Source: an uncultured Planctomycetales bacterium (GTDB lineage Bacteria > Omnitrophota > Gorgyraeia > Aquiviventales > Aquiviventaceae). Taken from it: 64,000 nucleotides of DNA. The translations under genes were made by a program, and so were the position numbers. Below are positions 523-64,000 of the stretch, one piece after another. The stretch lies in assembly GCA_964556925.1 (NCBI GenBank), contig CAZKXY010000002.1:1953-65952 (forward strand). Direction: 5' to 3'. Position 1 is the stretch's first letter, and each line of letters starts with the position of its first letter. Under the pieces are notes generated by a model that saw only the letters and a program-made list of their open reading frames with translations, was not told where the DNA came from and ran no database searches.

Positions 523-525
523 CCG

Positions 526-2567: not shown

Positions 2568-2814
2568 ACAGCGGGTTCAGCCGGGGCTGGAACAGCGGCT
2601 GCAGGCGGTCTTTCAGTCCGTGTTCCATTTGAGCGGGGCGCCGCTACAGGATGACTGGGGGCCCGGCACGCTGGAGGGCTGGGACTCGATGGGGCACCTC
2701 ACCTTGCTGGCCGCCCTGGAGCAGGAGTTCAAGATCAAGTTGGAGATGGACGACCTCATCGCGATGGACAGCGTCAAGGCGATCAAGGAACTGCTGGTCA
2801 AGAAAGAGGTCTGA
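2554..2814 (+). CDS. acyl carrier protein
   Basis: 86 aa. LEGWDSMGHLTLLAALEQEF contains the phosphopantetheine-attachment DS(M/L) motif in helix-II context. The ATG at 2554 overlaps the VOC gene by 14 nt. Confidence 0.8.
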   Translation: MDEVEQRVQPGLEQRLQAVFQSVFHLSGAPLQDDWGPGTLEGWDSMGHLTLLAALEQEFKIKLEMDDLIAMDSVKAIKELLVKKEV

Positions 2815-2816
2815 AG

Positions 2817-8698: not shown

Positions 8699-8711
8699 GT
8701 CAGGTGGTGCC

Positions 8712-13156: not shown

Positions 13157-13166
13157 GGGGGAACCC

Positions 13167-34670: not shown

Positions 34671-34730
34671 AAAGGTGTCTGACACCTTTCCCGACGCCAG
34701 ACGAGCGGTCGACAGGTGTCTGACACCTGT
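34671..34730. promoter_or_regulatory. two perfect 19-nt palindromes 41 bp apart (operator- or REP-like)
   Basis: AAAGGTGTC-T-GACACCTTT (34671-34689) and ACAGGTGTC-T-GACACCTGT (34712-34730). Located ~90 nt upstream of the KdsB-like start. Confidence 0.6.
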
Positions 34731-34816
34731 TGCGATGCGCAGCGGCCTGCCTGCCGGGCAGGCAGGCAGGACCCGGCGGGCTAGCGTTAGGCCGGCAGGC
34801 TGAGGCGGGTGGGGGG

Positions 34817-47692: not shown

Positions 47693-48799
47693 GTGAAGCT
47701 TCGGCTCTTAGACTGGCTGGCCTGCCCGGATTGCGGCGGGCCGGTCGAGGCGGAGGCGTTCAGGCGGGATGACGCCAGCGGCGAGATCGAGGAGGGGCTG
47801 CTGCGCAGCGGCTGCGGGCGGGTCTACCCGGTGGTCCAGGCGATCCCGCGCATGCTCGATGAAGGCGTGGAGCTGTTCCCCGAATTTGCCAGGCGGTACG
47901 CGGATCGGCTGCCGCCGGAGCGCCGCCAACCGGCCGGCGGCAGGTTTTCCGTGTCCGAGCGGTTGATCCGCCGCACCATGGAGAGCTTCGGCTACCAGTG
48001 GACGCTCTTCCCGGAGATGGTCATCGATTTCCGGGAGAATTTCCTCCGGTACATGGAGCCGTTGACGGAGTCCTTTTTCCGCGGGAAAGTCGGCATCGAC
48101 CTCGGCTGCGGCTTCGGCCGGCATGTCTACAACGCGGCCCAGTGCGGGGCGGAGATGGTCGGCGTGGACTTAAGCCGCGCCATCGATGCCGCGCGGCGGA
48201 ACACCCGGCGACTGGCCAACGTCCATCTCGTCCAGGCCAATCTGTACCGCCTGCCGTTCCGGCGGCAGTGCTTCGATTTCGCCTACAGCCTCGGGGTCCT
48301 GCATCACCTCCCTGATCCCGAGCGGGGGTTTGCGTGCCTGTGGCCGCTGGTCAAGCCGGGCGGCACCGTGCTCATCTGGGTCTACAGCAAGAGCCGGCGG
48401 GTGACCAATTGGCTGCTGGAGACCGTCCGCGGCATCACGACCCGCCTCTCCGCACGGGCGCAGACGGCCATCGCCTATGCGTGCGCCGCGGCGGACTGGT
48501 CGCTGTTCATCGCGCCGTACCGGATCGGATCGCGCCTGCCCGTGATCGGCCGCCTCGTGGACCAAATCACCTTTCCTCGGCTCAAAGTCTACAGCGCGTA
48601 CCCCTTCCAAGTCGTCTGCGCGGACTGGCTCGACCGCCTGACGGCGCCCATCCGGTTTTACTACGACGGGCAGGATTTGGACGGCTGGTTCCGGCGGGCC
48701 GGACTGGATCAGATCCGGGTCCACGCGACCGGCTTGTTCGGTTGGACGGCCTGCGGGCAGACCGCGCCGACTGAGCACCCGTCCCCTATCCCGTCATGA
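47693..48799 (+). CDS. Trm112-like Zn-ribbon + class-I SAM methyltransferase
   Basis: LLDWLACPDCGG...YPVVQAIPRML (Trm112p-like) then GIDLGCGFGRHV (motif I). GTG start 7 nt after GAGGAG. Confidence 0.7.
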   Translation: MKLRLLDWLACPDCGGPVEAEAFRRDDASGEIEEGLLRSGCGRVYPVVQAIPRMLDEGVELFPEFARRYADRLPPERRQPAGGRFSVSERLIRRTMESFGYQWTLFPEMVIDFRENFLRYMEPLTESFFRGKVGIDLGCGFGRHVYNAAQCGAEMVGVDLSRAIDAARRNTRRLANVHLVQANLYRLPFRRQCFDFAYSLGVLHHLPDPERGFACLWPLVKPGGTVLIWVYSKSRRVTNWLLETVRGITTRLSARAQTAIAYACAAADWSLFIAPYRIGSRLPVIGRLVDQITFPRLKVYSAYPFQVVCADWLDRLTAPIRFYYDGQDLDGWFRRAGLDQIRVHATGLFGWTACGQTAPTEHPSPIPS

Positions 48800-51498
48800 C
48801 GAGTCTCGTGTCCATCGTCTGCGTCTCCGCAGGAATCGTGGTGGCCGGCAGTGGGCTGCTCTGGTGGCTCGCGCGCGCGCCGGATGATCGGCGGCTGCGC
48901 CCCATCCTGCTCACCTCGTTCTGGATTCGGGCGTCGCTGGGGATCGCGCTCTACGCCATCTCCTTCCAGCACTGGCCCATCCTGCCCTCCCTGCACGTCC
49001 AAGACGGGTTCTGGACCTTTGCGCTCGACGCCCGCCTCTACCATTCCTGGGGCGTCACGATCGCCGAGGCCTGGCAACATGGCATCGAGCTGCCTGATTC
49101 GGGAGCCACGTACGACTATTACGCGATCATCGCGGCGATCTACCGGCTGCTCGGAGCCCACCCGCTCTACGCGATTCTGCTGCACGCCTGGCTCGGGGCG
49201 CTGACCGGATGGCTGGCGTACCGTATCGGCCAGCGGCTCTTCGACGCGCGGAGCGCCTTGCGTGGGGCGCTCCTCGTGAGTTTTTGGCCCTCATCGGTGC
49301 TCTGGTCCACCCAGATCCTCAGGGATTCAATCAGTTGGTCTCTCATCCTGGCCGTCCTGTGGCTGGTCGCCCTGATGGTTGGACCGGATGCCCGGCCCCT
49401 TCGCGTCCGGGGATGGCGGTGGGCGCTGCAGGCCGCGGCCCTTGCCGGCGCGACCATCCTGCTGGCACGGCTCCGGGTCTACCTGGGCCCCATCCTGGTC
49501 GTGACGGCGCTTGTGACGCTTGTCCCGGCTGGCTTCATGAACCGTCGGGTGGGCCGGCCTCTGTGGCGCACCATCTCGCTGATCAGCCGCCGGGTGGGCC
49601 GGCCTCTGTGGCGCACCATCTCGCTGATCAGCCGCCGGGTGGGCCGGCCCATCTGGCGTTGTGCCCGCCTCATCCGCCGTCCGGTCGTTCAGGCCGCATG
49701 GCCGGCAAGCGTGGCGGCCCTGGTGATCATCGCCGTGGTGGTGGCGAGGGATCTGGATACGACCCGGCTCGTCTCGCCAGCGCATCCTGAGGAAGGGCAC
49801 GTCAGGCTCGGCCTGCAGCATCAGCGGTCCGGCGATCTCGCGCAGGCGGAGGTGGAGTTCAAACGGGCGATCCAGCTCCGGGCGGACTACCAGCCGGCCT
49901 ACCGGCTGTTGGCAGACCTGTTGTCCAAGGCGAACCGGCCGGAGGAGGCGCTTGAGGTCTGCGCGAGTTGGCCAGGCGCCGACGACGATGGCGCGATGCG
50001 CCAGTGCGTCAGCCAGCTCAAGGCTCGCTTGAGCGAGCAGGCGCTTGTCCGGAAGCCGGATGCCACGCAGGCGGCGCCGGCGGTGCCGCCTGCCATGGCG
50101 CAGGCGCCCGCAGCCCCCCAGGCGCCTGGAGAGATGGGAGTCGCTCCCCCATCGCCCGCCACCAGCGCGCGCCTCGGACCGAAGCCACGCCGACGCCGCT
50201 GGGGGAAGAATACGCCGCCTGAGGTGGAGGCCGGGCCGGCCCAGAGCGTTCCCGATCCCCAGTCGGTGGTCCTGAAGGGGGAGGTGGTCGATGACGGGCG
50301 GCCCACCAACACCCTGACGTACCACTGGACCCAGATCTTCGGCCCGGCCCCCGCGCGCTTCGCCACCCCCAACGCCCTGGAGACCAGGGTGGAGCTGCCC
50401 GCGCGCGGGCGCTATAACTTCTATTTCACCGCCTCGGATGGGGACCTCAGCGGCTTCGATGGGCTCTTCGTCACCGTAGAACCGCTCCCAAATACGCCGC
50501 CGAAGGTGGAGGCCGGGCCGGCCCAGAGCGTTCCCGATCCCCAGTCGGTGGTCCTGAAGGGGGAGGTGGTCGATGACGGGCGGCCCACCAACACCCTGAC
50601 GTACCACTGGACCCAGATCTTCGGCCCGGCCCCCGCGCGCTTCGCCACCCCCAACGCCCTGGAGACCAGGGTGGAGCTGCCCGCGCGCGGGCGCTATAAC
50701 TTCTATTTCACCGCCTCGGATGGGGACCTCAGCGGCTTCGATGGGCTCTTCGTCACCGTGGAGGGCTTCCCGGTGCTGGCAGCGCCCCCGACCGAAACCC
50801 AGCCTCGCCTCGCCCTCCACCCCCCGTCAACCGCCCCCCTCATGACCCGGCTGATCACCCAGGGGATGGCCGTGGTGCATGAGATGAGCCCCCAGTGGCT
50901 CTCGTCCCTTCGGACCAGCGTCGTCATGGGCGGCGGCGAGTTGATGGACGCGCAGAAGGAGATCTTGCAGCCGTTCGACCTGATCACCTATCTGCCCCGC
51001 GCGCTGCTCGTGGGGTTTCTCGCCCCGTTTCCGCAGCAGTGGTTCGATACCAGCGGCAGCACGGGGGCGATGCGGCTCTTCGCGGGGGTGGAGATGGCCG
51101 TGAGCTATCTGCTCCTGATCGGGCTCGTGCTGCGCGCCTGGCGAGCGATCCGTCTGTTTGGGCCGATCGGCTGCGTCCGGCTCGCGATCCGGCGGATGCC
51201 GCTTGGGGGGTGGTTCCTCCTCGTCTACGGCCTGGTCATGGGGGCAGGCGTGTCCCTCGTCATGGCGAACATGGGGACGCTCTTCCGGATCCGGCTGCTG
51301 TTCTGGCTGCCGTTGCTCATCCTGGTGGCGGCCGCGGATCCGCTCGGCAGCTCCCGGTGGCGCCAATGGCTCAGTCGCTGGATCGCGCGATGGCGCGGCG
51401 GGCGTCCCGCCCAAGTCATGAAGCCGGAACCGGTCGGCGAGCCAACACCCGTGACGACCTCCATGGAACCGGTCGCCGGCGCGCGGGAGCCACGCTGA
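48796..51498 (+). CDS. GT-C (ArnT/PMT, GT39-like) membrane glycosyltransferase with TPR segment and two identical PKD/Ig-like domains
   Basis: The N-terminal multi-TM region (YYAIIAAIYRLLGAHPLYAILLHAWLGALTGWLAYRIGQRLF...LLVSFWPSSVLWSTQILRDS) looks GT39-like. It also has a TPR-like GDLAQAEVEFKRAIQLRADYQPAYRLLADLL. Two tandem 94-aa repeats match a PKD-like pattern (VEAGPAQSV...L.GEVVDDG...LTYHWTQIFGP...G.Y.F.FTASDG). More TM helices at the C-terminus. Confidence 0.6.
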   Translation: MTSLVSIVCVSAGIVVAGSGLLWWLARAPDDRRLRPILLTSFWIRASLGIALYAISFQHWPILPSLHVQDGFWTFALDARLYHSWGVTIAEAWQHGIELPDSGATYDYYAIIAAIYRLLGAHPLYAILLHAWLGALTGWLAYRIGQRLFDARSALRGALLVSFWPSSVLWSTQILRDSISWSLILAVLWLVALMVGPDARPLRVRGWRWALQAAALAGATILLARLRVYLGPILVVTALVTLVPAGFMNRRVGRPLWRTISLISRRVGRPLWRTISLISRRVGRPIWRCARLIRRPVVQAAWPASVAALVIIAVVVARDLDTTRLVSPAHPEEGHVRLGLQHQRSGDLAQAEVEFKRAIQLRADYQPAYRLLADLLSKANRPEEALEVCASWPGADDDGAMRQCVSQLKARLSEQALVRKPDATQAAPAVPPAMAQAPAAPQAPGEMGVAPPSPATSARLGPKPRRRRWGKNTPPEVEAGPAQSVPDPQSVVLKGEVVDDGRPTNTLTYHWTQIFGPAPARFATPNALETRVELPARGRYNFYFTASDGDLSGFDGLFVTVEPLPNTPPKVEAGPAQSVPDPQSVVLKGEVVDDGRPTNTLTYHWTQIFGPAPARFATPNALETRVELPARGRYNFYFTASDGDLSGFDGLFVTVEGFPVLAAPPTETQPRLALHPPSTAPLMTRLITQGMAVVHEMSPQWLSSLRTSVVMGGGELMDAQKEILQPFDLITYLPRALLVGFLAPFPQQWFDTSGSTGAMRLFAGVEMAVSYLLLIGLVLRAWRAIRLFGPIGCVRLAIRRMPLGGWFLLVYGLVMGAGVSLVMANMGTLFRIRLLFWLPLLILVAAADPLGSSRWRQWLSRWIARWRGGRPAQVMKPEPVGEPTPVTTSMEPVAGAREPR
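49546..49660 (+). repeat. 45-bp tandem repeat x ~2.5 inside the GT-C gene
   Basis: CGGGTGGGCCGGCCTCTGTGGCGCACCATCTCGCTGATCAGCCGC begins at 49546, 49591 and (diverging) 49636. It encodes RRVGRPLWRTISLIS repeated. Confidence 0.85.
50209..50772 (+). repeat. 282-bp tandem duplication (2 copies) inside the GT-C gene
   Basis: The copies start at 50209 and 50491. A central ~255-bp stretch is identical by eye. Differences occur only in the first ~12 and last ~18 nt. Each copy encodes one 94-aa PKD/Ig-like domain. Confidence 0.9.
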
Positions 51499-53444
51499 TG
51501 TGCGGGCTGGTGGGCCTGGTCCACTTCGACGGGCAGCCGATTGACGTCGGCCTTCTTGGCCGGATGACCGACGCCCTGGCCCATCGGGGGCCTGACGCCA
51601 GGGGGCTGCAGGTCGTCTCGGGCGGCGCGGCGCGCGTCGGCCTGGGCCATACGCGGCTGAAAATCGTGGATTGCTCGGAGGCGGCCGGCCAGCCCATGTC
51701 GAATGACGACGGCTCGATCTGGGTGGTCTTCAACGGCGAGATCTACAACTTCAGGGAGCTGCGGGCGTCGCGGGAAGCGCGGGGGGATCGCTTCAAGACC
51801 TCGTCGGATACCGAGGTGCTCCTGCGGCTGTATGAAGCGGAGGGCGAGCGATGCCTCGAGCGGCTCGACGGGATGTTCGCCTTCGCCGTCTGGGACAGCC
51901 GGCGGGGCGGCCTGCTCCTGGCCCGCGATCGTGTCGGCAAGAAACCGCTCTTCTACTGCGCCACGCCGACGCGGATCGCGTTTGCGTCGGAGATCAAGGC
52001 GCTCCTGCGCCATCCCGAGATCGCGCCGGAGGTCAACGTCGAGGCGCTGCCGGCGTTGTTCCTCTACGGCTACGTGCCGACGCCGCAGACGTGCTACCGC
52101 GGCATCCGCTCGCTGCCGCCGGGGCACCTGCTGCGCGCCGGCGCCGACGGCCGGATCCGCGTCGAGGAGTACTGGGACGTCCCCTTGGCTGCTGCCGCGC
52201 CTCGACGCCGGGTCGCTGATGCGGAGGCGCTGGCCAGGGTCCGGGAGCTGGTCATCGCGGCGGTGCGGCGCCGGCTCATTGCGGATGTGCCGCTGGGGGC
52301 GTTCCTCAGCGGCGGCATCGATTCCACCGTCGTCGTCGGGATCATGAGCCGGCTGATGGGCGAGCCGGTCCGCACCTTCAGCATCGGGTTCGCGGGCGAT
52401 GCCCGGTTCGATGAGACCGCCTACGCGCGGCTCGCGGCGCGCCGGTTCGGCACGGCGCACACCGAGTTTGTGGCGCAGCCCTCCTCGGTCGCGCTCGTCG
52501 AGGAGCTCGTCTGGCACCACGATGGGCCGTTCGCCGATTCCTCCGCGATCCCGACGTACCTGCTGTCGCGCCAGACGCGCCGGCACGTCACCGTCGCCCT
52601 GAACGGGGACGGCGGCGATGAGCTGTTCGCCGGCTACCTGCGCTTCTACGCGGCGCTCGTCGCGGAGCGTGCGCCGCGCTGGGCCCGCCGCGCCGCCGGA
52701 CGGCTCCTGGCTGGCCTGCCCGACTGGAGCACCCCCCGCAGCCTCCCTGCGCGGCTGCGGAAATTCGTGGGCAGCGCGGCCCTGCCGTTCACCGAGCGGT
52801 TCACGCGGTGGATCTCGGTGTTCTACGAGGATCTGCCGCGGCTGCTGGGGGGAGAGGGCGCCGGCAGCGCCCCGGAGCCGCTCGCCAGGCTCCAGCCGTA
52901 CCTGGCGCGGTGCCAGGAGGCCTCCCCCTTGAGCCGGCTCCTCTACCTCAACCTCAAGACCTACCTGCTGGATGATCTCCTGGTGAAAATGGACCGCTGC
53001 TCGATGGCGCATGGCCTGGAGACCCGCTCCCCGTTGCTGGACCGAGACCTCATCCACTACGTCTTCGGGCTGCCGGATCGCCTGAAGCTCCGGTGGGGCC
53101 GGACCAAGGTCATCCTGCGGGACGCCTTCGCGGACCTGATTCCTCCCGAGATCCTCCGGCGAGGGAAGATGGGTTTCGGCGTGCCGCTGCGCGCGTGGTT
53201 CACCAGCGACCTGCGCGAGGGGCTTCAGGACGCGCTGCTCGCGCCCGACGCGCGCCTGCGCCGCTACGTCGACGCCGGCTATGTCGAACACCTCTGCCAC
53301 GAGTATCTTGACGGCCGGGCGGACCACTCGCATCGGATCTGGACCTTGTTGACGTTCGAGGTGTGGCTGCGCAATCTGTCGTTGGAGCCCGTGGCCGGCG
53401 AGCCGACGGCTGCCCCAGTTGACGCGATGGTGACCGCCTCATGA
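51498..53444 (+). CDS. asparagine-synthase-family glutamine amidotransferase (no. 1)
   Basis: N-terminal nucleophile MCGLVG, RGPD, and PP-loop FLSGGIDSTVVV. Confidence 0.85.
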   Translation: MCGLVGLVHFDGQPIDVGLLGRMTDALAHRGPDARGLQVVSGGAARVGLGHTRLKIVDCSEAAGQPMSNDDGSIWVVFNGEIYNFRELRASREARGDRFKTSSDTEVLLRLYEAEGERCLERLDGMFAFAVWDSRRGGLLLARDRVGKKPLFYCATPTRIAFASEIKALLRHPEIAPEVNVEALPALFLYGYVPTPQTCYRGIRSLPPGHLLRAGADGRIRVEEYWDVPLAAAAPRRRVADAEALARVRELVIAAVRRRLIADVPLGAFLSGGIDSTVVVGIMSRLMGEPVRTFSIGFAGDARFDETAYARLAARRFGTAHTEFVAQPSSVALVEELVWHHDGPFADSSAIPTYLLSRQTRRHVTVALNGDGGDELFAGYLRFYAALVAERAPRWARRAAGRLLAGLPDWSTPRSLPARLRKFVGSAALPFTERFTRWISVFYEDLPRLLGGEGAGSAPEPLARLQPYLARCQEASPLSRLLYLNLKTYLLDDLLVKMDRCSMAHGLETRSPLLDRDLIHYVFGLPDRLKLRWGRTKVILRDAFADLIPPEILRRGKMGFGVPLRAWFTSDLREGLQDALLAPDARLRRYVDAGYVEHLCHEYLDGRADHSHRIWTLLTFEVWLRNLSLEPVAGEPTAAPVDAMVTAS

Positions 53445-55036
53445 GCGACCAGGATTCGTCTGCGGCATCCTCCGGTGGAGCGGTGTCGCTCGAGCGCCTG
53501 GCCGAGGTGCTGGCGACGGTGCAGCGGCAGTGCCCTGAGCTGGCCGTGCTGGCTATTCGCTGGATGCATCTCAGGCATCCGCTCCATCCGCTCCAGGACG
53601 CGCTCCTGCGCGGCGCGCCAGCTCCAGGCGGGAGCGGACCGCTCAGGGGGATCCGTCGGCTGACGGAGAGCGTGATCTACGCGGGGTACTGCTGGGGCCG
53701 GCTCCTGGCCCTGCGCCTTCGGACGCGGCAGGAGCTGGCGGCGGTGACGCGCCAATCCTTCGACCTCATCGCCAAAAGCTGGGTGCGCAGCATGGAGGGC
53801 GCAGACTGCGACGGGGACTTCTACTACGGAGACCTGCAACAGCGGTTGGCGCGGCAGGGCATCCGGGTGCTGCTGCTCTGCGGCAACCTCGGTGGCGAGG
53901 GGTGGACGCGGTTTGCGAAGGCGTGCGCGCGCGCGCCGTTGCCGCGGCTGTCGGAGCTGTGCCTGCTGCCGCTCGCGGCCCCGCTGCGCATGCTGGCGCG
54001 GCAGTGGCGCGCCTGCCGCCGGCTTCGGCGCCTTGCGGCCACGGCCGAGGATGCGCTGGTGAAGCGGATCAGCCGGCTCGCCAGCCTCGAGTGCCTGGCC
54101 CCGGAAACGGCCCGCGCCGGGTTCTATTATTGGATCGGCCAGACCGCCGTCCGCGCGTGGCGGCCCCGCGCCTTCCTGACCGTCTACGAAGCGCAGGGAT
54201 GGGAGCAGGCCCTGCGGTGGGGCCTCAAGACGGCAGACCCAGCCTGCTGCGTGCTCGGCTACCAGCACACCTTTGTCTTTCCGGAGGCCCGATCGCTGGT
54301 GGCCCCGCCGCGCACGACCGGCCTGCCGCTGCATCCGGATGTCGTGCTGTGCCTGGGCCAGAGGCCGCGCGAGCAGCTGCGGGCAGGGCATGAGCCGTAC
54401 GGCGCCCGGCTGGTGCCGTTCGGCAGCTTGTGGTACCGCCCCGCACGCGCCGAGGCGCCGGCGGCGCCGTCGCGTCGCACGGTCTTGGTCGTGCCTGAGG
54501 GGCATCCTTCAGCGGTGCAGCCGCTCTTTCAATTTGCGTGCGCCTGCGCGCGCCGCCTGCCGTCCTACACGTTCCTCCTCAGGGGCCATCCGGTGTTCCC
54601 CCGGACGCCGGCCCTGCGAGCGGTGCTGGAGGGGCTCCCGCAGCAGCCGAATGCGGTCTTCTCCGAGCGCCACGTCCTCGAGGACGACATCGGACGGTCG
54701 TCCATCGTCTTGTATCGCGGGTCATGGGCTGTGGTGTCCGCGATCCTGCACGGCCTGCTGCCCGTCTACGTGATGCTGCCTGGCGGCGACGGCCACGATC
54801 CGCTCGCCGGGCTGACGGCGTGGCACGCACGGTGCGAGACGCCTGAGGAGCTAGCGGGGGTGCTCGCCCGTCATGAGCGCGCCCCGCGGGACCGCCTGGA
54901 GGCGGACTGGCGGGCTGCGGCGCAGGATCTGCACGACTGGACCGGTCCAGTGACCGAGGCATCGCTTGAGGCCTTGCTCGAGGCGGCGGGCCTGAGGAGC
55001 CAGGCGAGAGCTATCACGGAGGCGATCCATGCCTGA
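53441..55036 (+). CDS. uncharacterised surface-carbohydrate-locus protein, paralog B (of 17102-18670)
   Basis: See 17102-18670 for the shared blocks. ATGA overlap with asnB-like no. 1. Confidence 0.4.
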   Translation: MSDQDSSAASSGGAVSLERLAEVLATVQRQCPELAVLAIRWMHLRHPLHPLQDALLRGAPAPGGSGPLRGIRRLTESVIYAGYCWGRLLALRLRTRQELAAVTRQSFDLIAKSWVRSMEGADCDGDFYYGDLQQRLARQGIRVLLLCGNLGGEGWTRFAKACARAPLPRLSELCLLPLAAPLRMLARQWRACRRLRRLAATAEDALVKRISRLASLECLAPETARAGFYYWIGQTAVRAWRPRAFLTVYEAQGWEQALRWGLKTADPACCVLGYQHTFVFPEARSLVAPPRTTGLPLHPDVVLCLGQRPREQLRAGHEPYGARLVPFGSLWYRPARAEAPAAPSRRTVLVVPEGHPSAVQPLFQFACACARRLPSYTFLLRGHPVFPRTPALRAVLEGLPQQPNAVFSERHVLEDDIGRSSIVLYRGSWAVVSAILHGLLPVYVMLPGGDGHDPLAGLTAWHARCETPEELAGVLARHERAPRDRLEADWRAAAQDLHDWTGPVTEASLEALLEAAGLRSQARAITEAIHA

Positions 55037-55766
55037 GACGGTGATCGCGGTGATTCCCATTCGCGGCTCGGATGAAGAGTTCGCCGACGGTCCGCTGCCG
55101 CGGCTTGGCGGACGGCCGTTGATTGAGTATACGCTCCTCGCGGCCAAGGAGGCGAAGCGCCTGGATCGGATGCTCGTCTCCACGGACAGCTCGGCGATCG
55201 CCGAGGCGTGCCGAGGCTATGGGGTCGAGGCGCCGTTCCTGAGGCCGGTGTCGCTGAGCGAGCCCGGCGTCGCTGAGACCGCTGTCTTGCGCCATGCCGT
55301 CGAATGGCTGGAGCGGCAGGAGGGCTATCGGGTGGACTGGGTGGTCAAGCTGGAGATCACGCACCCGTTTCGCCCGCCCGGGATCATCGACCGGGTGATT
55401 GAGACGGCGCTGGCCACGCCGGTCGATTCCGCCTTCCTGGCATACGAAGAGATCCACAGCTATTGGACGCTCGACGAGCAGGGTCAGCCGCAGCAGGTGG
55501 GCCAGGAGGTCGACGTGCCGCGGACCGCCCGCCGCCCGTTTTATCGGGACGTCAGCGGGCTGGCCGCGATCACGCGGGCGTCGAACCTCAGGGCGGGGTC
55601 GCTGTATGGCGAGCGGATCGGGCTCATCCCCTGCCATGAGCTCGTTGCGATCGTGGACACCCACGAGGGCCCCACGGGTCCCGATGGCAAGCGCGCAGGA
55701 TTCCGCCTGGCCGAGCTGCTGGCCCCTGACTACCACCGGATCATGGCCGAATGCAAAACGGGCTGA
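55029..55766 (+). CDS. neuA: acylneuraminate (nonulosonate) cytidylyltransferase, NeuA/LegF-like
   Basis: VIAVIPIRGS...LGGRPLIEYTLLAAKEAKRLDRMLVSTDSSAIAEACRGYGVEAPFLRP matches the CMP-NulO synthetase pattern. Confidence 0.75.
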   Translation: MPETVIAVIPIRGSDEEFADGPLPRLGGRPLIEYTLLAAKEAKRLDRMLVSTDSSAIAEACRGYGVEAPFLRPVSLSEPGVAETAVLRHAVEWLERQEGYRVDWVVKLEITHPFRPPGIIDRVIETALATPVDSAFLAYEEIHSYWTLDEQGQPQQVGQEVDVPRTARRPFYRDVSGLAAITRASNLRAGSLYGERIGLIPCHELVAIVDTHEGPTGPDGKRAGFRLAELLAPDYHRIMAECKTG

Positions 55767-57738: not shown

Positions 57739-58613
57739 ACGCGGTCGCGCAGGCGCTGACACGACTCGCCCCGCCCCCGGTCAGGCGGATCGGCGGCGGG
57801 CTCGCGCGCCGGTGGCAGGGGGTGGGGCTGCCGGCGGCGGGCCGCGGCACGGTGCAGGATCTCTACTACTGGGTCGCGGACGGGGACGTGGACACGAACG
57901 TGCTGCTCAACAATTTCTACAGCGTGTTCTTTCCGACGGTCGCGACGGACACGCGCGGCGCGGTGACCGTCTTTGATGCCGGCGGCCACCGCCTGGGCGC
58001 GACGGAGGTGGCGGTGGGGCACCTGCAGTGCGCGAAGCTGACCCTGTCGCGCCTGCTGCGCCAGTGGCCTCGCGAGGGCGCCGCGGCGCCGCCGTTCGGC
58101 GGCCTGCTGTTCCATCTGGAGGTCCCGCCGGCGGTGCTGGAGCGGCTCGCCGGGATCCCGGGGCCGTGGTATTTCTGGCACCGGTTTTACATCGAATACG
58201 TGACCGCCGCCTCCCAGCCGGCGTTCGTCCACTGCGTTGACAAGACCTGGGTGCTCCGCCACGGCGCGCGCCGGCCGCTGGCGTGGTATCGTCGGCCCCG
58301 GCCGCGCGACTGGGCCCCGGAGATGCCGTTGAATATCGCGGACTATCGCCGGCTGTTCGTGATCCTCATGAACCGCACGCGCCAGCCCGCCACGCTGACC
58401 TTGACGGTGGAGGATTGCCACGACCGCGCCGAGCGGTTCACGGCCACGATCCCGCCACACGGCGTGCACCGGTTTGAGCTGACCCGCGAGCGCCTGCGAG
58501 GGCTGGCGCCCCGGGAGCTGCGGATGCGCGTGTCCGGATTGCCGACGACGTGGGCGCGGCCGGTCCTCTTCAAGGAATTTGCGAACGGGACGATCTCGAC
58601 CATGCACTGTTGA
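57735..58613 (+). CDS. hypothetical protein (292 aa), remote paralog of 56806-57738
   Basis: See 56806-57738. ATGA overlap with the upstream gene. Confidence 0.35.
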   Translation: MNAVAQALTRLAPPPVRRIGGGLARRWQGVGLPAAGRGTVQDLYYWVADGDVDTNVLLNNFYSVFFPTVATDTRGAVTVFDAGGHRLGATEVAVGHLQCAKLTLSRLLRQWPREGAAAPPFGGLLFHLEVPPAVLERLAGIPGPWYFWHRFYIEYVTAASQPAFVHCVDKTWVLRHGARRPLAWYRRPRPRDWAPEMPLNIADYRRLFVILMNRTRQPATLTLTVEDCHDRAERFTATIPPHGVHRFELTRERLRGLAPRELRMRVSGLPTTWARPVLFKEFANGTISTMHC

Positions 58614-58617
58614 CGCG

Positions 58618-60483
58618 ATGTGCGGCATCTTCGGCGCCATAGGTCGTGCGGGCACGGAGGCGCTGGCGCGCCAGGTGCTGGAACGCCTCAGGCACCGCGG
58701 CCCTGACGATGAAGGGATCCAGCGGTTTGCGGACGGGTGGCTGGCGCACACGCGGCTGTCCATCATCGACCTGAGCGCGTCCGGCCGCCAGCCGATGGCG
58801 AACGCGCGCGGCACCGCCTGGATCGCCTATAACGGGGAGATCTACAACTACCAGGAGCTGCGCGAGGAGCTCTCCGGCTATCCCTTCCGGACGCGCACCG
58901 ACACCGAGGTCATCCTGGCGGCCTACGAGCGCTGGGGCGACGACTGCGTCCGGCATCTCCGGGGGATGTTCGCGTTCGGGCTCTGGGATCTGGCGCGGCG
59001 CGAGCTGTTCTGCGCGACCGACCGGTTCGGCATCAAGCCGCTCTACTATGCGTGGGATGGGAGGCGGTTCGTCTTCTGCTCGGAGGTGACCCCGATGGCG
59101 CTGTGCGGCGTGCCGCTGGCGCCGAACGAGCAGGCGCTGTACGCGTATCTGGCCTGCGGGCTGTTGGATCATGGGCCGGACACCCTGTTCGAGGGCATCC
59201 GGCAGCTCCGCCCCGGCACCACGCTGACCCTCCACGAGGGATCGCTCGCGATCCGTCGGTACTGGGATGTGCCCGACGGCGAGGACCGGCGGGAGGAGGA
59301 TCCGTCCGCGCTTAAGGCGCGCATCGAGGCGAGGTTGCTCGACGCGGTCCGGCTGCATCTGCGGGGGGATGTGGAGGTGGGGCTCAGCCTCAGCGCCGGC
59401 TTGGATTCCACCCTGTTGCGCGCGCTGGTCCTCGAGCTCGACGGCCGGGCTGCGCCGCTGCAGTGTTTCACGTACGCCTTCCCCGGCACCCCGTACGACG
59501 AAGGGCCAGCGGCCCGCGCGGAGGCGCCCGACCGTTGTCGGGTCCACGCGATTGACGTCCGGCCCGAGCGCGCGCTGGAGGAGCTCTCGCGGCTGGTGGA
59601 GGTCATGGAGGGGCCGGTCGGAGGGTTGGGCATTTATGGGTACTGGCGCAGCGCCCAGCTCGCCGCCGATCAGGGGATCAAGGTGCTCCTGGATGGGCAG
59701 GGGGCCGACGAGACGTTTGCCGGCTACCGCTATTACTATGAGGCGAAGCTCCGGCAGCTCTGGGAGCAGGGCCGGCGCGATGCGGCGATGGACGAGTTCC
59801 GGCAGTTGTGCGAGCTGCACGCCGAGCCGGTCCGCCGGTTCGAGCCGGGGCGATCTGTGCCGGTGGCTGAGGCAGGGGTCCTGGCGCCGGACAGCACCCC
59901 GCTGACCAGCACCTATGCGCATCCGGACTTCGCCGCCCGCGCGCGCGGTCGCCGGGAGGACTTCCCGGCGCCGTTTGCCTGCGCGGTGAAGAACGCGATG
60001 TATCGCGACCTCGTCTTCCTGAAGATCCCGAAGCTGTTGCGGTTTCAGGATAAGTGCGCGATGGCCTGGGGCGTGGAGGTCCGCGTGCCGTACCTGGATC
60101 ACCCCTTGGTGGAAGCGCTCTTCGCGGCGCCGACCGACCGGTTGCTGGCGGCCGGCCGGCCCAAAGCCCTCCTGCGGGCGATTGCCCGGCGCTACCTGTC
60201 AGGGGACTGCCTGAGCGCTCCGAAGCGCTACGTGGCGGCGCCCCAGCGGGAGTGGATCAAGACCGTGTGGCGGCGGCCGATCGAGGAGATGATTCAGGAC
60301 TCCGTGCTGGCCGCGCGCGGCTATATCCTCAAGGACGCCTTGCTGAGCCAGTTCCAGGCCTACGTCGACAGCCCGGCGTTGGGCAACTCGTTCTTCATCT
60401 GGAAGTTCGTCAATCTCGAGCTCTGGTACCGGCGGTTTTGCGCCGCCTCGCAGCCCGCCGGCTTGGCCGCGGGGCATCCCTGA
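58618..60483 (+). CDS. asparagine-synthase-family glutamine amidotransferase (no. 2)
   Basis: MCGIFG, HRGPDD, and PP-loop LSAGLDSTLL. Confidence 0.85.
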   Translation: MCGIFGAIGRAGTEALARQVLERLRHRGPDDEGIQRFADGWLAHTRLSIIDLSASGRQPMANARGTAWIAYNGEIYNYQELREELSGYPFRTRTDTEVILAAYERWGDDCVRHLRGMFAFGLWDLARRELFCATDRFGIKPLYYAWDGRRFVFCSEVTPMALCGVPLAPNEQALYAYLACGLLDHGPDTLFEGIRQLRPGTTLTLHEGSLAIRRYWDVPDGEDRREEDPSALKARIEARLLDAVRLHLRGDVEVGLSLSAGLDSTLLRALVLELDGRAAPLQCFTYAFPGTPYDEGPAARAEAPDRCRVHAIDVRPERALEELSRLVEVMEGPVGGLGIYGYWRSAQLAADQGIKVLLDGQGADETFAGYRYYYEAKLRQLWEQGRRDAAMDEFRQLCELHAEPVRRFEPGRSVPVAEAGVLAPDSTPLTSTYAHPDFAARARGRREDFPAPFACAVKNAMYRDLVFLKIPKLLRFQDKCAMAWGVEVRVPYLDHPLVEALFAAPTDRLLAAGRPKALLRAIARRYLSGDCLSAPKRYVAAPQREWIKTVWRRPIEEMIQDSVLAARGYILKDALLSQFQAYVDSPALGNSFFIWKFVNLELWYRRFCAASQPAGLAAGHP

Positions 60484-60487
60484 GCTG

Positions 60488-61540
60488 ATGCGGCCCCCGA
60501 TGGACATTGTGCAGGTGGGCTTGGGCAACTTCGGCAAGCGGCACCTGGAGGCCTGGCGCCGCTTGGGCTTCGGCGAGCGGCTCTGGATCGTCGAGCCGGA
60601 CGAGGCGAAGTGGCCGGAGGCGCGCCGCGCCGAGATCCCCGAGCGGCGGATCCTCCGGTCGCTGGATGCGGCGCTGGAGCGCGCGCCGCTGGTCGATCTC
60701 GTCACGCCGACCGACAGCCATGACGCGCTCTGCCGGCAGGCGCTGGACGCCGGGAAGGACGTCTTCGTCGAGAAACCCATGACGATGACCTCGGCGCAGG
60801 CCAGGGCATTGGCCGCGCTGGCCGAGGGACGCGGCCGCCTGATCCAAGTCGGCTATTACTACCGCTTCCATCCGGCCGCGCGCCGGCTCAAGGCGGATGT
60901 CGAGGCCGGGCGGCTTGGGCGGCTGCGCTATCTCAGCGGGACGTTCTGCGGGTTCAAGCGCGCGCGGAATGACGTGGGGGTCATGCACACGGACGGCATC
61001 CACTTCCTCGACCTGTTCAACTGGCTGCTCGGCCGCCCGCCGGTCGAGGTGGACGCGGTCTGCCGCGACCACTTCGGGCGGGGGCTGGAGGATTTCTCCA
61101 TCGCGCTCCTGACCTATCCGGACGGGGCGGTGGGGAAGGTGGAGTCCGGCTACATCCAGCCCGGCCGGTGGGAGGATCGCGTGGTGGCTGGGGCGATGAC
61201 GACCAAGGAGCTGGTCGCCGTCGGCGAGGCCGCGACGGCCGAGATTGATTTCGAAGCGGGCAGCTATCGGCTGACCGAGGTCCGGCATGAGCCGGTGAAC
61301 GGCGTGTGGACGCCGCGCTTCGGTCAGCGGGCCGAGGAGTCGGCCGGCGTCGTGGACCCGGCGCAGATGATCGGCTGGGAGCTGGAGGCGTTCCTGTCCT
61401 GTGTGGCGAACCGGCAGCCGACCGCGGCCGGGCCGGTGGAGTGCGGGGTCGCGTTGGCCGCGGTGATGGAAGCGCTGTACGAGTCAGCGACCTGCCGCGA
61501 GCGGGTGGCGGTGGACCTGGACTCGCTTGTACGGGGATGA
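60488..61540 (+). CDS. Gfo/Idh/MocA-family oxidoreductase (no. 3)
   Basis: IVQVGLGNFGKRHL, and VTPTDSHDALCRQALDAGKDVFVEKPMT. The start could be the ATG at 60500. Confidence 0.75.
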   Translation: MRPPMDIVQVGLGNFGKRHLEAWRRLGFGERLWIVEPDEAKWPEARRAEIPERRILRSLDAALERAPLVDLVTPTDSHDALCRQALDAGKDVFVEKPMTMTSAQARALAALAEGRGRLIQVGYYYRFHPAARRLKADVEAGRLGRLRYLSGTFCGFKRARNDVGVMHTDGIHFLDLFNWLLGRPPVEVDAVCRDHFGRGLEDFSIALLTYPDGAVGKVESGYIQPGRWEDRVVAGAMTTKELVAVGEAATAEIDFEAGSYRLTEVRHEPVNGVWTPRFGQRAEESAGVVDPAQMIGWELEAFLSCVANRQPTAAGPVECGVALAAVMEALYESATCRERVAVDLDSLVRG

Positions 61541-61559
61541 GGCGCTGTCGGGCACGGCG

Positions 61560-61653
61560 GTTCGAGCGGCGAGGACGCCGTGGGGTGCGCGGCGGCCTGT
61601 CTGCCCGGCAGGCAGGCAGGACCCGCTGCCAGGCGACTGTTCGAGCGAGGAGA
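61560..61653 (+). repeat. short hairpin element flanked by direct repeat GTTCGAGCG(GC)GAGGA
   Basis: GTTCGAGCGGCGAGGA (61560-61575) and GTTCGAGCGAGGAGA (61639-61653). They flank CCTGTCTGCC-C-GGCAGGCAGG(CAGG) at 61596-61620. That is the same hairpin family as 34746-34770 and 45651-45667. Confidence 0.65.
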
Positions 61654-62546
61654 TGAAAGATATCAGTGGGGAGGATCTCGTGTCGAACCTGAAGCTGGCG
61701 GCCAAGCGCGACGAGTCGCACCGGAGCGTCGTGCGGGTGAAGTCGCACGCCATCGGGGGCGAGGGCTTCACCGTGATCGCCGGCCCGTGCGCGGTCGAAG
61801 GCCGCGACCAGATCCTGGAGATCGCCGGGCGGGTCAAGGCGGCCGGGGCGCATCTGTTGCGCGGCGGGGCCTTCAAGCCGCTGACGTTTCCGTACCGCAA
61901 CGCCCAGACGTTCGAGCTGGGGGAAGCGGGGTTGCGGTACTTGCGGGAGGCGGGCGATCGGACCGCCCTTCCCGTGGTGACGGAAGTGCTCGACGTGCGG
62001 CTCGTGGACACCGTGGCGCAGTACGCCGACATGCTCCAGATCGGCGCGCGGAACATGCAGAACTTCCCATTGCTTGAAGCCGTGGCCAAGACGGGCAAGC
62101 CCGTCCTCTTGAAGCGGCACTTCGGCGCGTCGCTGCGCGACTGGTTGGGCGCGGCGGAGTACCTGCTCTATCATGGGAACGCCTCGGTCGCGCTGTGCGA
62201 GCGGGGTGTCGCGGCTCCCCATACGCACGCGCCGGCCTCGCGCTTCCTCCCCGACCTGGCGGTCGTGCCGGCGGCGCAGGAGGTCACGCACCTGCCGATT
62301 CTGATCGATCCGAGCCACGCGACGTTCCGCCGCCGGTGGGTGATCCCGGTCGCGCGGGCGGCGCTCGCGGTCGGCGCTGACGGCATCATGGTCGACGTGC
62401 ACCCTGATCCCGAGCGAGCCGCGGTGGATCCGCTGCAGGCGCTCGGCTTCGACGCGTTTGAGCACCTGATGCGGCAGCTGGACGCCATGGCCCCGGCCGT
62501 GGGGCGCACGCTGCGGAGGGCGGCTGCGGTCGTTCGTGATGGCTGA
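61653..62546 (+). CDS. DAHP-synthase (class I-beta) / KDO8P-synthase-family PEP-aldolase, divergent substrate loop
   Basis: FTVIAGPCAVEG, HLLRGGAFKP, PVVTEVLD, MLQIGARNMQNF and LIDPSHA...GADGIMVDVHPDP are conserved. The canonical KPRTSPYSFQGLG loop reads KPLTFPYRNAQTFELG. GAGGAG SD before the ATG at 61653. Confidence 0.7.
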   Translation: MKDISGEDLVSNLKLAAKRDESHRSVVRVKSHAIGGEGFTVIAGPCAVEGRDQILEIAGRVKAAGAHLLRGGAFKPLTFPYRNAQTFELGEAGLRYLREAGDRTALPVVTEVLDVRLVDTVAQYADMLQIGARNMQNFPLLEAVAKTGKPVLLKRHFGASLRDWLGAAEYLLYHGNASVALCERGVAAPHTHAPASRFLPDLAVVPAAQEVTHLPILIDPSHATFRRRWVIPVARAALAVGADGIMVDVHPDPERAAVDPLQALGFDAFEHLMRQLDAMAPAVGRTLRRAAAVVRDG

Positions 62547-62579
62547 TCGCTTCGTCGGGCGTGTTCAACAGGTGGGGGG

Positions 62580-63713
62580 ATGACCGTCACGCAGCGGACG
62601 TGGGTTGACGAACTTCAGGCGTTGGTGACGAACCGCCTGGATCCCGCGGCGCTGGGCGAGCGCCGCTTCGCGGCGATCCTGGGCGATGTCCCCTCGACGT
62701 ACGCCAAGAGCCCTCGGCTGTGGAACGCGGCCTTCGCGGCCCTGGGCCTGCCGGCGGCGTTCGTGCCGCTGGATATCCCCCCGGGCCGCCTGCCGGAGGT
62801 CGTGCGGGCGCTTCGCGAGCGCGACGCGTGGCTGGGCGGAAGCGTGACCGTGCCGTACAAGACGCAGATCATCCCCCTGCTCGATGCGGTGGAGCCGATG
62901 GCCGCGCGCATCGGGGCGGTGAACGTCGTCGTTCGCGAAGCCGACGGCCGCCTCGTGGGGCACAACACCGACGGCCGGGCCGGGGTGCGGGCGTTGACCG
63001 ACGACGTCCTTCCCGGAAGCCCGCCGCCCCTTGAGCGCCTCGCAGGCGCCCGGGTCTTGTTGATCGGCGGCGGCGGGGCGGCCCAGGCGATGGCGTGTCA
63101 TCTCTGGGAGGCGCTTGGTGATGGCGAGCTGTTGATCGCCACTCGCGCGCGCCAGCAGGCGGAGCACCTGATCCAGCGGCTGGCCGCGATGCGGCCAGGC
63201 CGGCTGGCAGCCATCGACGACGCGGAGATTTCTCACCGCGCGCCGGGCATGGATCTGGTGGTCAACGCGACCCTCAAAGGCCAAGCCGGCATCCGCACCC
63301 TGTCGGACGGGCGCCGCACGACACTGGAACCGTATTCCGCGCTCGCGCCGGCCGCTCCGGCCGCGGTGGCTGCGACGGAGGGGTCCGACGAGGGCGCGTT
63401 CTTCGAGGCGTGGTATCGGGGGTCGTCGGCGGATCTGTGGCAGAACCAGGAGCGGTCGCTCGCGCTCTGCGCGCGCCTGCCGCGCCAGACCCTCTGCTAC
63501 GACATCATCTACGCGCCGCCGGAAACGGTCTTCTTGCGCCATGCCCGCTGGAGCGGTCACCGGACCCTGAACGGCAAAGCCATGAACGTCGCGCAGGCGG
63601 TGGACGCCTTCACGCGATACGTCTGCCGCGACTGGCTGCGGGATTTCGGGAGGGATCCGGACGACGCGCCCCGGCAGGTCGCACACGCGATGGCGGAGGC
63701 GTGGGGGCGATGA
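62580..63713 (+). CDS. shikimate/quinate-dehydrogenase-family (AroE-like) oxidoreductase, long form
   Basis: SPRLWNAAFAALGLPAAFVPLDI, GGSVTVPYKTQIIPLLD, NTDGRAGVRAL and LLIGGGGAAQAM. At 377 aa it is longer than I expect for this family, with an apparent insertion near residues 255-300. Confidence 0.65.
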   Translation: MTVTQRTWVDELQALVTNRLDPAALGERRFAAILGDVPSTYAKSPRLWNAAFAALGLPAAFVPLDIPPGRLPEVVRALRERDAWLGGSVTVPYKTQIIPLLDAVEPMAARIGAVNVVVREADGRLVGHNTDGRAGVRALTDDVLPGSPPPLERLAGARVLLIGGGGAAQAMACHLWEALGDGELLIATRARQQAEHLIQRLAAMRPGRLAAIDDAEISHRAPGMDLVVNATLKGQAGIRTLSDGRRTTLEPYSALAPAAPAAVAATEGSDEGAFFEAWYRGSSADLWQNQERSLALCARLPRQTLCYDIIYAPPETVFLRHARWSGHRTLNGKAMNVAQAVDAFTRYVCRDWLRDFGRDPDDAPRQVAHAMAEAWGR

Positions 63714-64000
63714 CCGCGACCCCGGTCCTGATCGCTGAGCTGCGGCTGGACGAGCGCGCGCCGGAGCGGTCCGGCGCGAGACTCATCGAGTGGGCGGCGG
63801 TGTGCGGCGCCTCGGGCGTCATCCTTCCGCGCGCGTGGCAGGCGACGGCGCCGGCGGACGCACTGCGGCAGGCGACGGCGGCCCTGGGGCTCGCGTGGCA
63901 CGAGGAGACCCCGCCGTCCTCCTACGTGGATCGGAACGCGGACCCTGAAGCGGCGCTGCAGGGCCTGCTGAATGCGGCGCTGCGACGCGCCCCCGCGCTG
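63710..64000 (+). CDS. 5' part of an ORF running off the window; weak NeuB (sialic-acid-synthase)-like N-terminus
   Basis: The ATG at 63710 forms an ATGA overlap, and the frame is open to nt 64000 (97 codons, not in the ORF track because it has no stop). MTATPVLIAELRLDERAPERSGARLIEWAAVCGASGVILPR loosely parallels the NeuB pattern P(LV)xIAE(IG)xNHNG..ELAxxLIxxAxxxGAxxVKFQ but lacks INHNG. Confidence 0.3.
   Translation, partial: MTATPVLIAELRLDERAPERSGARLIEWAAVCGASGVILPRAWQATAPADALRQATAALGLAWHEETPPSSYVDRNADPEAALQGLLNAALRRAPAL

Follow-up and report, generated by a model that had tools for sequence, protein, structure and literature searches.

A DAHP-synthase-like aldolase in a conserved glycan cassette is a candidate synthase of CMP-activated ulosonic acids

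Shikimate-pathway families in a glycan gene cluster

Do genes of two shikimate-pathway families that lie in a glycan cluster serve to build aromatic amino acids, or have they been recruited to make a sugar? This question is raised by a 64,000-nucleotide stretch of DNA from an uncultured Planctomycetales bacterium, placed in Omnitrophota by GTDB (assembly GCA_964556925.1, contig CAZKXY010000002.1, positions 1,953 to 65,952 of the forward strand), which was analysed as a whole and is called the window here. The last 3.5 kb of the window hold four co-directional genes with no terminator-like sites between them. One of these (61653..62546, + strand) encodes a 297-residue protein that resembles type I-beta synthases of the 7-phosphate of 3-deoxy-D-arabino-heptulosonate (DAHP synthases, DAHPS), which use phosphoenolpyruvate (PEP) and erythrose 4-phosphate (E4P). 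It is preceded by a gene for a 350-residue Gfo/Idh/MocA oxidoreductase identified with Pfam (60488..61540, +), and followed by one for a 377-residue oxidoreductase of the shikimate dehydrogenase family (SDH-like; 62580..63713, +; Pfam Shikimate_dh_N, 72.6 bits) and by a third open reading frame (ORF; 63710..64000, +) that runs past the window end. The DAHPS-like gene, the SDH-like gene and the third ORF lie where the original prediction, made from the letters of the window, had placed them. We find it likely that the DAHPS-like protein is a DAHPS-derived synthase of a 3-deoxy-2-ulosonic sugar (similar to 3-deoxy-D-manno-octulosonic acid, Kdo, or to sialic acid), which would be activated with cytidine monophosphate (CMP) for a surface glycan, and not an enzyme of the aromatic pathway. 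It would then stand for a third line of ulosonic-acid synthases that use PEP.

An intact PEP site beside an altered acceptor site

The start of the DAHPS-like protein, MKDISGEDL, is backed by K2 and D3, which are invariant among homologs. Its motifs (GPCAVEG, LRGGAFKPLTFPYRNAQTFELG, DPSHATFRRR and VDVHPDP) include all of those named in the original prediction, that is, the metal-Cys motif GPCAVEG, LRGGAFKP and a DPSH...VHPDP-type stretch. Pfam DAHP_synth_1 matched with 196.9 bits, and the best match in the PDB was 1VS1 (E 8e-81). The AlphaFold2 (AF2) model (pLDDT, the predicted local distance difference test, 87.4) had the same A. pernix structure as its top Foldseek match (template modelling scores 0.83/0.92), with structures of the synthase of Kdo 8-phosphate (KDO8P synthase, KDO8PS) ranking next at about 25% identity. 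The Pfam NeuB model gave a partial match (26.6 bits, residues 83-181), and profile searches found neither a SAF domain nor an NCBIfam NeuB/PseI match in this protein. In a neighbour-joining tree of 159 relatives, all 18 sequences bearing the His-Thr-His (HTH) signature described below formed one exclusive clade, which we call KPL/HTH. Placed in this way among the DAHPS, KDO8PS and NeuB families, a check proposed with the original prediction, the protein belongs to a clade of its own, scores far below the KDO8PS models and matches NeuB only marginally.

Roles were assigned to individual residues with the help of an alignment from the literature and of the DAHPS complex of T. maritima, in which the Arg and Thr of the KPRT motif bind E4P (PMC6362186). 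The phosphate-binding role that the original prediction had given to this loop agrees with that complex. All PEP ligands are retained in the DAHPS-like protein (R70, K75, Q129, R133, K154 and R184), as are the metal ligands Cys46, His222 and Asp259, the metal-binding Glu being replaced by Asp248. At the KPRT motif, the Arg has become Leu77, Thr78 is retained, and the Ser that follows has become Phe79. Judged from these residues, the half of the active site that binds PEP is thus intact, and the acceptor half is altered in the part that would bind phosphate.

The changes extend to two loops. In the alignment to 1VS1 and 1ZCO, the beta2-alpha2 loop (residues 75-90; 61875..61922, +) reads KPLTFPYRNAQTFELG in place of KPRTSPYSFQG-LG: Leu replaces Arg, Phe replaces Ser, and three residues are added, exactly the loss of Arg and Ser and the insertion that had been predicted. 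The second loop, ERGVAAPHTHAPAS (residues 183-196; 62199..62240, +), carries another three-residue insertion with an invariant H-T-H, where ERGI---RTFE of the type I-beta enzymes is aligned with ERGVAAPHTHA; this one is absent from the original prediction. We consider it probable that the gene descends from a type I-beta DAHP synthase whose aldose pocket was rebuilt, so that E4P would no longer be the acceptor.

The altered site is conserved in a patchily distributed clade

The altered loop is not peculiar to the window. KPLTFPY[RQ] was found in at least 118 of the 120 nearest database homologs (65-83% identity). When one genome per species was scanned (185,579 in all), relatives were detected in up to 173, and the locus counts and gene contexts given below are drawn from the best 80 of these up to 173 species-level relatives. 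KP[LM][TS]FPYR was present in approximately 75 of the 80 loci, so that the position of the KPRT Arg is occupied by Leu (Met in two). The motifs KP[LM][TS]FPYR, ERGxx[AVT][PAT]HTH, KRH[FY]G and DPSH[AS]TF occur clade-wide, and because they are conserved across phyla at 51-83% overall identity, the changed residues are evidently not drift. Searches among 1.84 billion representative proteins gave bit scores that drop from 416 within the clade to about 270 for canonical enzymes with KPRT. In public databases the homologs are annotated as '3-deoxy-7-phosphoheptulonate synthase', a name which is probably misleading for this clade.

The up to 173 species-level relatives represent more than 12 phyla. 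The best 80 include Planctomycetota, Omnitrophota, Chloroflexota, Gemmatimonadota, Acidobacteriota, Acidimicrobiia, Nitrospirota, Nitrospinota and Methylomirabilota, along with SAR324, Bacteriovoracaceae, SAR11, SAR116, Prochlorococcus, Azospirillum, Roseibium, Marinomonas and Denitromonas. The distribution across species genomes is patchy, island-like and horizontal. The viral contigs of IMG/VR yielded no member of the clade. A separate phage-borne DAHPS-like subfamily (L094, L096-L100 and L102; 38-41% identity) has an Arg-less loop of its own, GGAYKPCT[YF]P[IV]T.

Members of the clade also differ at the metal site. The metal Cys of GPCxVE is replaced by Asn (GPN[TM]VE) in 51 of the 80 loci (e.g., L035, L039, L040 and L083), among them all of the proteobacterial and cyanobacterial ones and a few others such as SAR324 and Methylomirabilota. 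Enzymes of the window type retain the Cys and have Asp in place of the metal Glu. To our knowledge, a Cys to Asn substitution has not been reported for DAHP synthases. The same switch defines the metal-independent KDO8P synthases (PMC3052366).

A conserved cassette with glycan genes instead of aromatic genes

The context of the 80 loci was examined by tblastn. An SDH-like gene lies within 5 kb of the DAHPS-like gene in 68 loci and within 300 bp in 57, and several of the exceptions are contig ends. Within the same 5 kb, a CTP_transf_3 cytidylyltransferase was found in 58 loci, a small conserved family 2 glycosyltransferase (GT2; 45-65% identity across phyla) in 54, and a Gfo/Idh/MocA gene in 46, in many of which it stands directly upstream of the DAHPS-like gene. 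The PDB entries nearest to the Gfo/Idh/MocA protein, 6NOR and 7BVJ, are dehydrogenases of sugars or nucleotide sugars. Prochlorococcus carries the cassette as five genes (L039 6767-11769): a cytidylyltransferase, a fusion of GT2 with a cytidylyltransferase-like (CTP_transf_3) domain, Gfo/Idh/MocA, DAHPS-like and SDH-like. The assignment of the trio to glycan or ulosonic-acid synthesis in the original prediction is supported by this context, but the trio is part of a larger cassette that also has Gfo/Idh/MocA, GT2 and two cytidylyltransferases. Across the clade, one or two cytidylyltransferases of the PseF/KdsB-like kind accompany the gene. We judge it likely that this conserved cassette is horizontally mobile, and that the DAHPS-like protein acts as its synthase.

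Gene fusions tie parts of the cassette together. Besides the GT2::CTP_transf_3 fusion, these are a NeuB-like::GT2 fusion in some genomes (L086) and single Gfo/Idh/MocA::SDH-like polypeptides of 730-736 residues in four genomes of Chloroflexota, Planctomycetota and Acidobacteriota (L008 6907-9111, L013 7097-9289, L015 7038-9248 and L017 7060-9252). From the latter it follows that the two oxidoreductases work together. A DAHPS-like::SDH-like fusion in SAR11 (L062, L075 and L077), suggested by our ORF script, was discarded, as a stop codon separates the two genes.

In the window, the DAHPS-like and SDH-like genes are 33 nucleotides apart; they overlap by 4 nucleotides in relatives such as L085. 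The translational coupling of the two genes that had been predicted therefore lacks an overlap in the window itself, although no terminator-like site intervenes. The start of the third ORF (63710) overlaps the SDH-like stop codon as ATGA, as had been noted. Rfam and promoter/terminator scans gave no match within or between the genes.

Two further genes of the window belong to this context. A CTP_transf_3 cytidylyltransferase of 245 residues (55029..55766, +; Pfam, with weak PseF/KdsB matches) represents the second, more divergent type of the cassette, being 61% identical to the second cytidylyltransferase of the cassettes at L007 and L024. An AsnB-type glutamine amidotransferase of 634 residues (58579..60483, +; TIGR01536, 399 bits) is an occasional neighbour: such genes lie within 5 kb in 7 of the 80 loci, and orthologs with 53-54% identity adjoin the cassette in L012 and L018.

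Positions 60239-64000 of the window recur at 99.97% identity on a JGI contig, L001, which extends 9.7 kb beyond nucleotide 64000. Downstream of the third ORF it encodes a 771-residue protein with no family match (L001 5308-7623), a PseF/KdsB-like cytidylyltransferase of the first type, which is thus outside the window (L001 7730-8431), another GT2, a transglutaminase-like protein, an SGNH/AlgX-like protein and a methyltransferase. On the other side, contig L104 is 100% identical to positions 1-12130 and reaches upstream of the window start. Exact-pattern scans of metagenome contigs found no further extension.

The SDH-like protein scored 143.2 bits with TIGR00507 (cutoff 200.2), and all 17 AroE/YdiB models remained below cutoff. 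The catalytic Lys94 and Asp131, as well as Asn115 and Gln339, are invariant in its 68 orthologs. The SxS carboxylate motif of AroE reads A42-x-S44, which is likewise invariant. Most of the AroE residues that bind carboxylate and hydroxyl groups are thereby kept. These residues suggest that the enzyme is active, but probably on an altered substrate. HMMER aligned it to the AroE structure 2EGG in two stretches (query 37-234 and 299-348), and the gap marks about 65 additional residues (235-298; 63282..63473, +) inserted into the Rossmann domain. This insertion explains the length that the original prediction had called unusual; the long form is not unique, being common to approximately 20 of the 68 orthologs from several phyla, and proteobacterial and cyanobacterial orthologs have about 290-310 residues. 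Among the PDB matches is 7COK, a 5-ketofructose reductase, that is, an SDH-family enzyme that acts on a keto-sugar.

Could the pair nonetheless be ordinary housekeeping aroF and aroE genes that serve aromatic amino acids and stand in a glycan cluster by chance? Both proteins do belong to shikimate-pathway families, and the automated annotation of the homologs points the same way. However, no aroB, aroD/Q, aroK, aroA or aroC was found in the Pfam-annotated loci (a check of the loci and not of whole genomes), and aroB, aroQ and aroK, whose presence just downstream would have counted against the original prediction, are also absent from the 9.7 kb past nucleotide 64000 on L001, where GT2 genes, a cytidylyltransferase, an SGNH/AlgX-like gene and methyltransferases were found instead. 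Linkage to cytidylyltransferase and GT2 genes is kept across phyla, the E4P-binding Arg is lost, the SDH-like protein falls far under every AroE cutoff, and the carriers, no more than 173 among the 185,579 species genomes, are distributed patchily, in an island-like and horizontal manner. With this neighbourhood recurring in 80 genomes of many phyla, and the Arg to Leu change throughout the clade, we agree with the original prediction that these are not ordinary aroF and aroE genes, and regard the housekeeping explanation as highly improbable.

In Nitrospira sp. Kam-Ns4a (OZ224218.1), the cassette lies within a flagellar glycosylation island, with flgK, flgL, csrA, fliW and a Maf-like gene nearby. 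A flagellin-glycosylation context was rejected as a general trait, since the other loci yielded no more than weak flagellin-like matches (in L057 and L061).

The NeuB-like partner has lost its catalytic residues

The third ORF enters the window with its first 97 codons. At full length (L001 3902-5311) it encodes 469 residues, with a SAF domain at 170-219 and a GT2 domain at 238-393; its first 165 or so residues contain no recognisable domain, and the Pfam NeuB match is absent. It is 51% identical to the NeuB::GT2 fusion of L086 (11985-13328). When compared with the NeuB barrel, only its start and last part align, and about 160 barrel residues are missing. The NeuB motifs E..NH.G, KxQ, SDH and EKH are absent, and IAELRLDERA, SYVDRN and LVKAL are read instead. 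By its sequence, then, the third ORF is no NeuB enzyme; it joins a truncated and catalytically dead remnant of NeuB to SAF and GT2 domains. The weak resemblance to NeuB without INHNG that had been predicted is explained by this remnant, but the ORF cannot be counted as an enzyme of the trio.

The remnant has counterparts elsewhere. A NeuB-like gene follows the SDH-like gene in 22 loci (e.g., L003, L012, L013, L021-L024 and L027), and its product lacks the two metal-binding His residues and the catalytic Glu of NeuB, with GLSDHS changed, for example, to GYTDNE or GYYGTD and EKH to EKA or EKP. These motifs are intact in canonical NeuB genes at other places in the same loci. Because the NeuB-like partner has either lost its catalytic residues or is truncated, the DAHPS-like protein is, as far as motifs tell, the only intact PEP aldolase of the cassette.

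A proposed pathway and its acceptor

We infer the reaction, its acceptor and the order of steps from family membership, conservation of the altered site, linkage, fusions and the lack of aro genes nearby. First, the DAHPS-like enzyme would condense PEP with a free aldose, probably non-phosphorylated, which the small conserved GT2 may set free from a nucleotide sugar in the manner of PseG or NeuC; the fusion of GT2 to the NeuB remnant fits consecutive steps. Second, the Gfo/Idh/MocA and SDH-like enzymes may form an oxidise-then-reduce (epimerisation) pair that acts on a hydroxyl of the ulosonate ring. By analogy with quinate, the site would probably be C4, since the segment C2(OH,COO-)-C3H2-C4HOH of the pyranose ulosonate matches C1(OH,COO-)-C2H2-C3HOH of quinate. 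Third, the PseF/KdsB-like cytidylyltransferase would make the CMP-sugar, which a dedicated transferase would finally install, in some genomes a WaaA-like member of family GT30.

We favour a non-phosphorylated aldose as the putative acceptor, because the phosphate-binding Arg is lost, Leu77 and Phe79 are hydrophobic, and the minimal five-gene cassette of Prochlorococcus contains no phosphatase. Several observations weigh against this interpretation. The DAHPS-like protein exceeds the NCBI cutoffs for DAHP synthases (TIGR01361, 304.6 vs 267.75 bits; NF006421, 349.4 vs 335) and is 55% identical to the genuine DAHPS of A. pernix (1VS1). The clade has a conserved new Arg (FPYR82) and three conserved His residues, which could bind a phosphate or carboxylate, as of E4P, arabinose 5-phosphate or a uronic-acid aldehyde. 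The confidence of the AF2 model is lowest in the two altered loops (pLDDT 70-77 in the beta2-alpha2 loop and below 50 for residues 186-196), hence the new pocket is not resolved by it. In Azospirillum (L046, L047, L065, L078 and L083) the Asn-type gene has no adjacent SDH-like partner, and the annotated neighbourhoods are unrelated to glycans (Bax1-I, DUF2076, rhomboid and TPR genes in L083; an ABC transporter and a protease in L065). L065 does have GT2 and cytidylyltransferase genes 1.5 kb from the DAHPS-like gene. The roles proposed for GT2 and the second cytidylyltransferase are guesses, and a search of the literature on DAHPS and SDH in nonulosonic, flagellin or cytidylyltransferase contexts found no description of the cassette.

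Some of these points would suit a true DAHP synthase (PEP and E4P) that feeds a glycan branch, in which DAHP would lose its phosphate, be modified by the SDH-like and Gfo/Idh/MocA enzymes, and be activated as a CMP-linked, seven-carbon heptulosonic acid. Besides the cutoffs passed and the identity to the A. pernix enzyme, such a function is compatible with the retention of Thr78, and the relocated Arg82 with the conserved His residues could stand in for the lost Arg. It is at odds with the clade-wide changes of the phosphate Arg to Leu and of Ser to Phe, which make the site hydrophobic, with the missing phosphatase, and with the two loop insertions, which point to a different and probably larger acceptor. 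We therefore consider a glycan-branch DAHP synthase unlikely.

Another possibility is an equivalent of KDO8P synthase, which would use PEP and arabinose 5-phosphate to provide extra Kdo for a capsule or other glycan through the KdsB-like cytidylyltransferases and a WaaA-like GT30. In the closest relatives with long contigs, genes for Kdo-transferase-like GT30 proteins (PF04413) are indeed flanked by the two cytidylyltransferases (L085 13857-15245 and L086 15148-16425), with relatives in L006 (about 15535-16827) and L009 (about 15026-16276). In that place the window organism encodes the 771-residue protein of L001, which lies between the GT2 fusion and the cytidylyltransferase. KdsB/PseF-like cytidylyltransferases are part of the cassette, and the Cys/Asn dichotomy of the clade is typical of KDO8P synthases. 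Yet the DAHPS-like protein failed the KDO8P synthase model (TIGR01362, 99.3 bits vs a cutoff of 314), and the KANRS phosphate site has no counterpart in it. The cassette includes neither KdsD nor KdsC, and it is present in Acidimicrobiia and Chloroflexota, which are not known to make lipopolysaccharide Kdo. This function would also leave the pair of oxidoreductases without a role, and we deem it improbable, even more so than a glycan-branch DAHP synthase.

Returning to the synthesis of an ulosonic acid from a free aldose, a bolder extension is conceivable, which we offer tentatively. The KPL/HTH clade might form a third line of synthases of glycan ulosonic acids beside KdsA and NeuB, one not recognised before. 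With the Gfo/Idh/MocA and SDH-like pair, it might lead to a chemically undescribed sugar that SAR11 and Prochlorococcus, which rank among the most abundant marine bacteria, and many uncultured phyla would carry at their surface, and its Asn-type members might be the first natural metal-independent enzymes on the DAHPS side. Such a sugar could, for example, be an ulosonate epimeric at C4, or an 'ulosaric' acid with two carboxylates that derives from a uronic-acid aldehyde.

The surrounding glycan cluster

A single, very large glycan cluster takes up the remainder of the window, with legionaminic-type precursor genes, dehydratases, epimerases, C-methyltransferases, B12-radical-SAM enzymes and glycosyltransferases. 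The legionaminic-type set (7976-13156) comprises a PglD-like acetyltransferase, NeuC (TIGR03568, 437 bits), a 4,6-dehydratase, a DegT aminotransferase and a CBS-nucleotidyltransferase, which we take to be PtmE-like. No NeuB was found within the window itself. A canonical NeuB with a SAF domain is encoded just upstream (L104 223-1314), with IIAEAGVNHNG, KFQT, GYSDHT and LEKH intact, and is followed by a Maf/MptE-like gene (L104 1542-2531) that runs into the window (1-522). Therefore, the cluster also makes a classical nonulosonic acid. The idea that the DAHPS-like enzyme substitutes for NeuB in the legionaminic-type set was dismissed in view of this canonical enzyme on L104.

Three B12-binding radical-SAM enzymes (526-2130, 13134-14942 and 20672-22234) suggest unusual C-methylation or other radical tailoring of sugars. 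Genes called on L104 for window positions 2130-7983 encode a glyoxalase-like protein, a carrier protein (weak PP-binding match), an AMP-ligase, an Fe-alcohol dehydrogenase and a LuxE::LuxC fusion; together they resemble a module for acyl activation and reduction that is attached to a sugar pathway. A 657-residue protein (34730-36703) joins a KdsB-like cytidylyltransferase to a D-2-hydroxyacid dehydrogenase, and its KdsB half barely passes the model (NF003952, 194.7 bits, cutoff 193). Two paralogous pairs were observed: 53441-55036, which has a weak surface-carbohydrate match (TIGR04326), with 17102-18670 (41% identity), and 22872-24659 with 26790-28535 (47% identity, no family matches). Finally, a 900-residue protein (48796-51498), in which TPR repeats and PKD-like domains accompany a PMT_2 (protein O-mannosyltransferase-like) region, is possibly a glycan or protein-glycosylation transferase of the cluster.

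Implications

These findings describe a cassette that is widely shared and was previously undescribed, and they point to a widespread uncharacterised pathway whose chemistry we infer from its genes. If the cassette makes a surface sugar, the DAHPS and SDH names on thousands of database entries mislead metabolic reconstructions, for instance when aromatic prototrophy is called in metagenome-assembled genomes of uncultured phyla. It would then also represent a third evolutionary route to CMP-activated acidic sugars, which shape phage recognition, grazing resistance and host interaction. SAR11 and Prochlorococcus carry the cassette in variable glycan islands. The dead NeuB partner and the Cys/Asn switch amount to a natural experiment on how a PEP aldolase changes its acceptor and its dependence on metal. 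Cultured carriers, namely Marinomonas ostreistagni, Denitromonas iodatirespirans, Roseibium and Azospirillum, make this interpretation directly testable.

Comparison with known systems

The closest known relatives of the DAHPS-like protein are the unregulated type I-beta DAHP synthases such as 1VS1 and the P. furiosus enzyme 1ZCO. They share with it the (beta/alpha)8 fold, the absence of a regulatory domain and about 50-55% identity, along with the PEP ligands and, apart from the Glu to Asp change, the metal site. The clade differs from them by the change of KPRTS to KPLTF, two three-residue insertions in loops, His, Arg and aromatic residues that are newly invariant (KRH, HTH, ATF and RDW), Asn for the metal Cys in many members, and a gene context of glycan rather than aromatic synthesis.

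The Kdo pathway (KdsA-KdsC-KdsB-WaaA) resembles the proposed one in its PEP-dependent formation of a 3-deoxy-2-ulosonic acid, in activation with CMP and, in some loci, in a GT30, and KdsA shows the same Cys/Asn metal dichotomy. Unlike that pathway, whose synthase is only about 25% identical, the cassette contains no phosphatase or isomerase and adds two oxidoreductases and a GT2.

Meanwhile, the NeuB, PseI and LegI pathways (hydrolase, synthase and CMP-transferase) are the functional analogue that we propose, in that PEP would be joined to a free, non-phosphorylated aldose and the product passed to a PseF-like cytidylyltransferase. Within the alpha-carboxyketose synthase superfamily (PMC12531865), these synthases and the DAHPS-like protein occupy different branches. 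Many cassettes physically include a protein derived from NeuB; in contrast to the synthases of those pathways it is dead or truncated, and a separate canonical NeuB serves the legionaminic-type genes.

The SDH-like protein shares with AroE, YdiB and 7COK a two-domain architecture, the catalytic Lys and Asp, and the Asn, Gln and Tyr substrate contacts. It departs from AroE and YdiB in its scores under the cutoffs, in AxS for SxS, in the insertion of the long form, and in being always partnered with a DAHPS-like gene and at times fused to Gfo/Idh/MocA. The example of 7COK indicates that the SDH family can act on keto-sugars.

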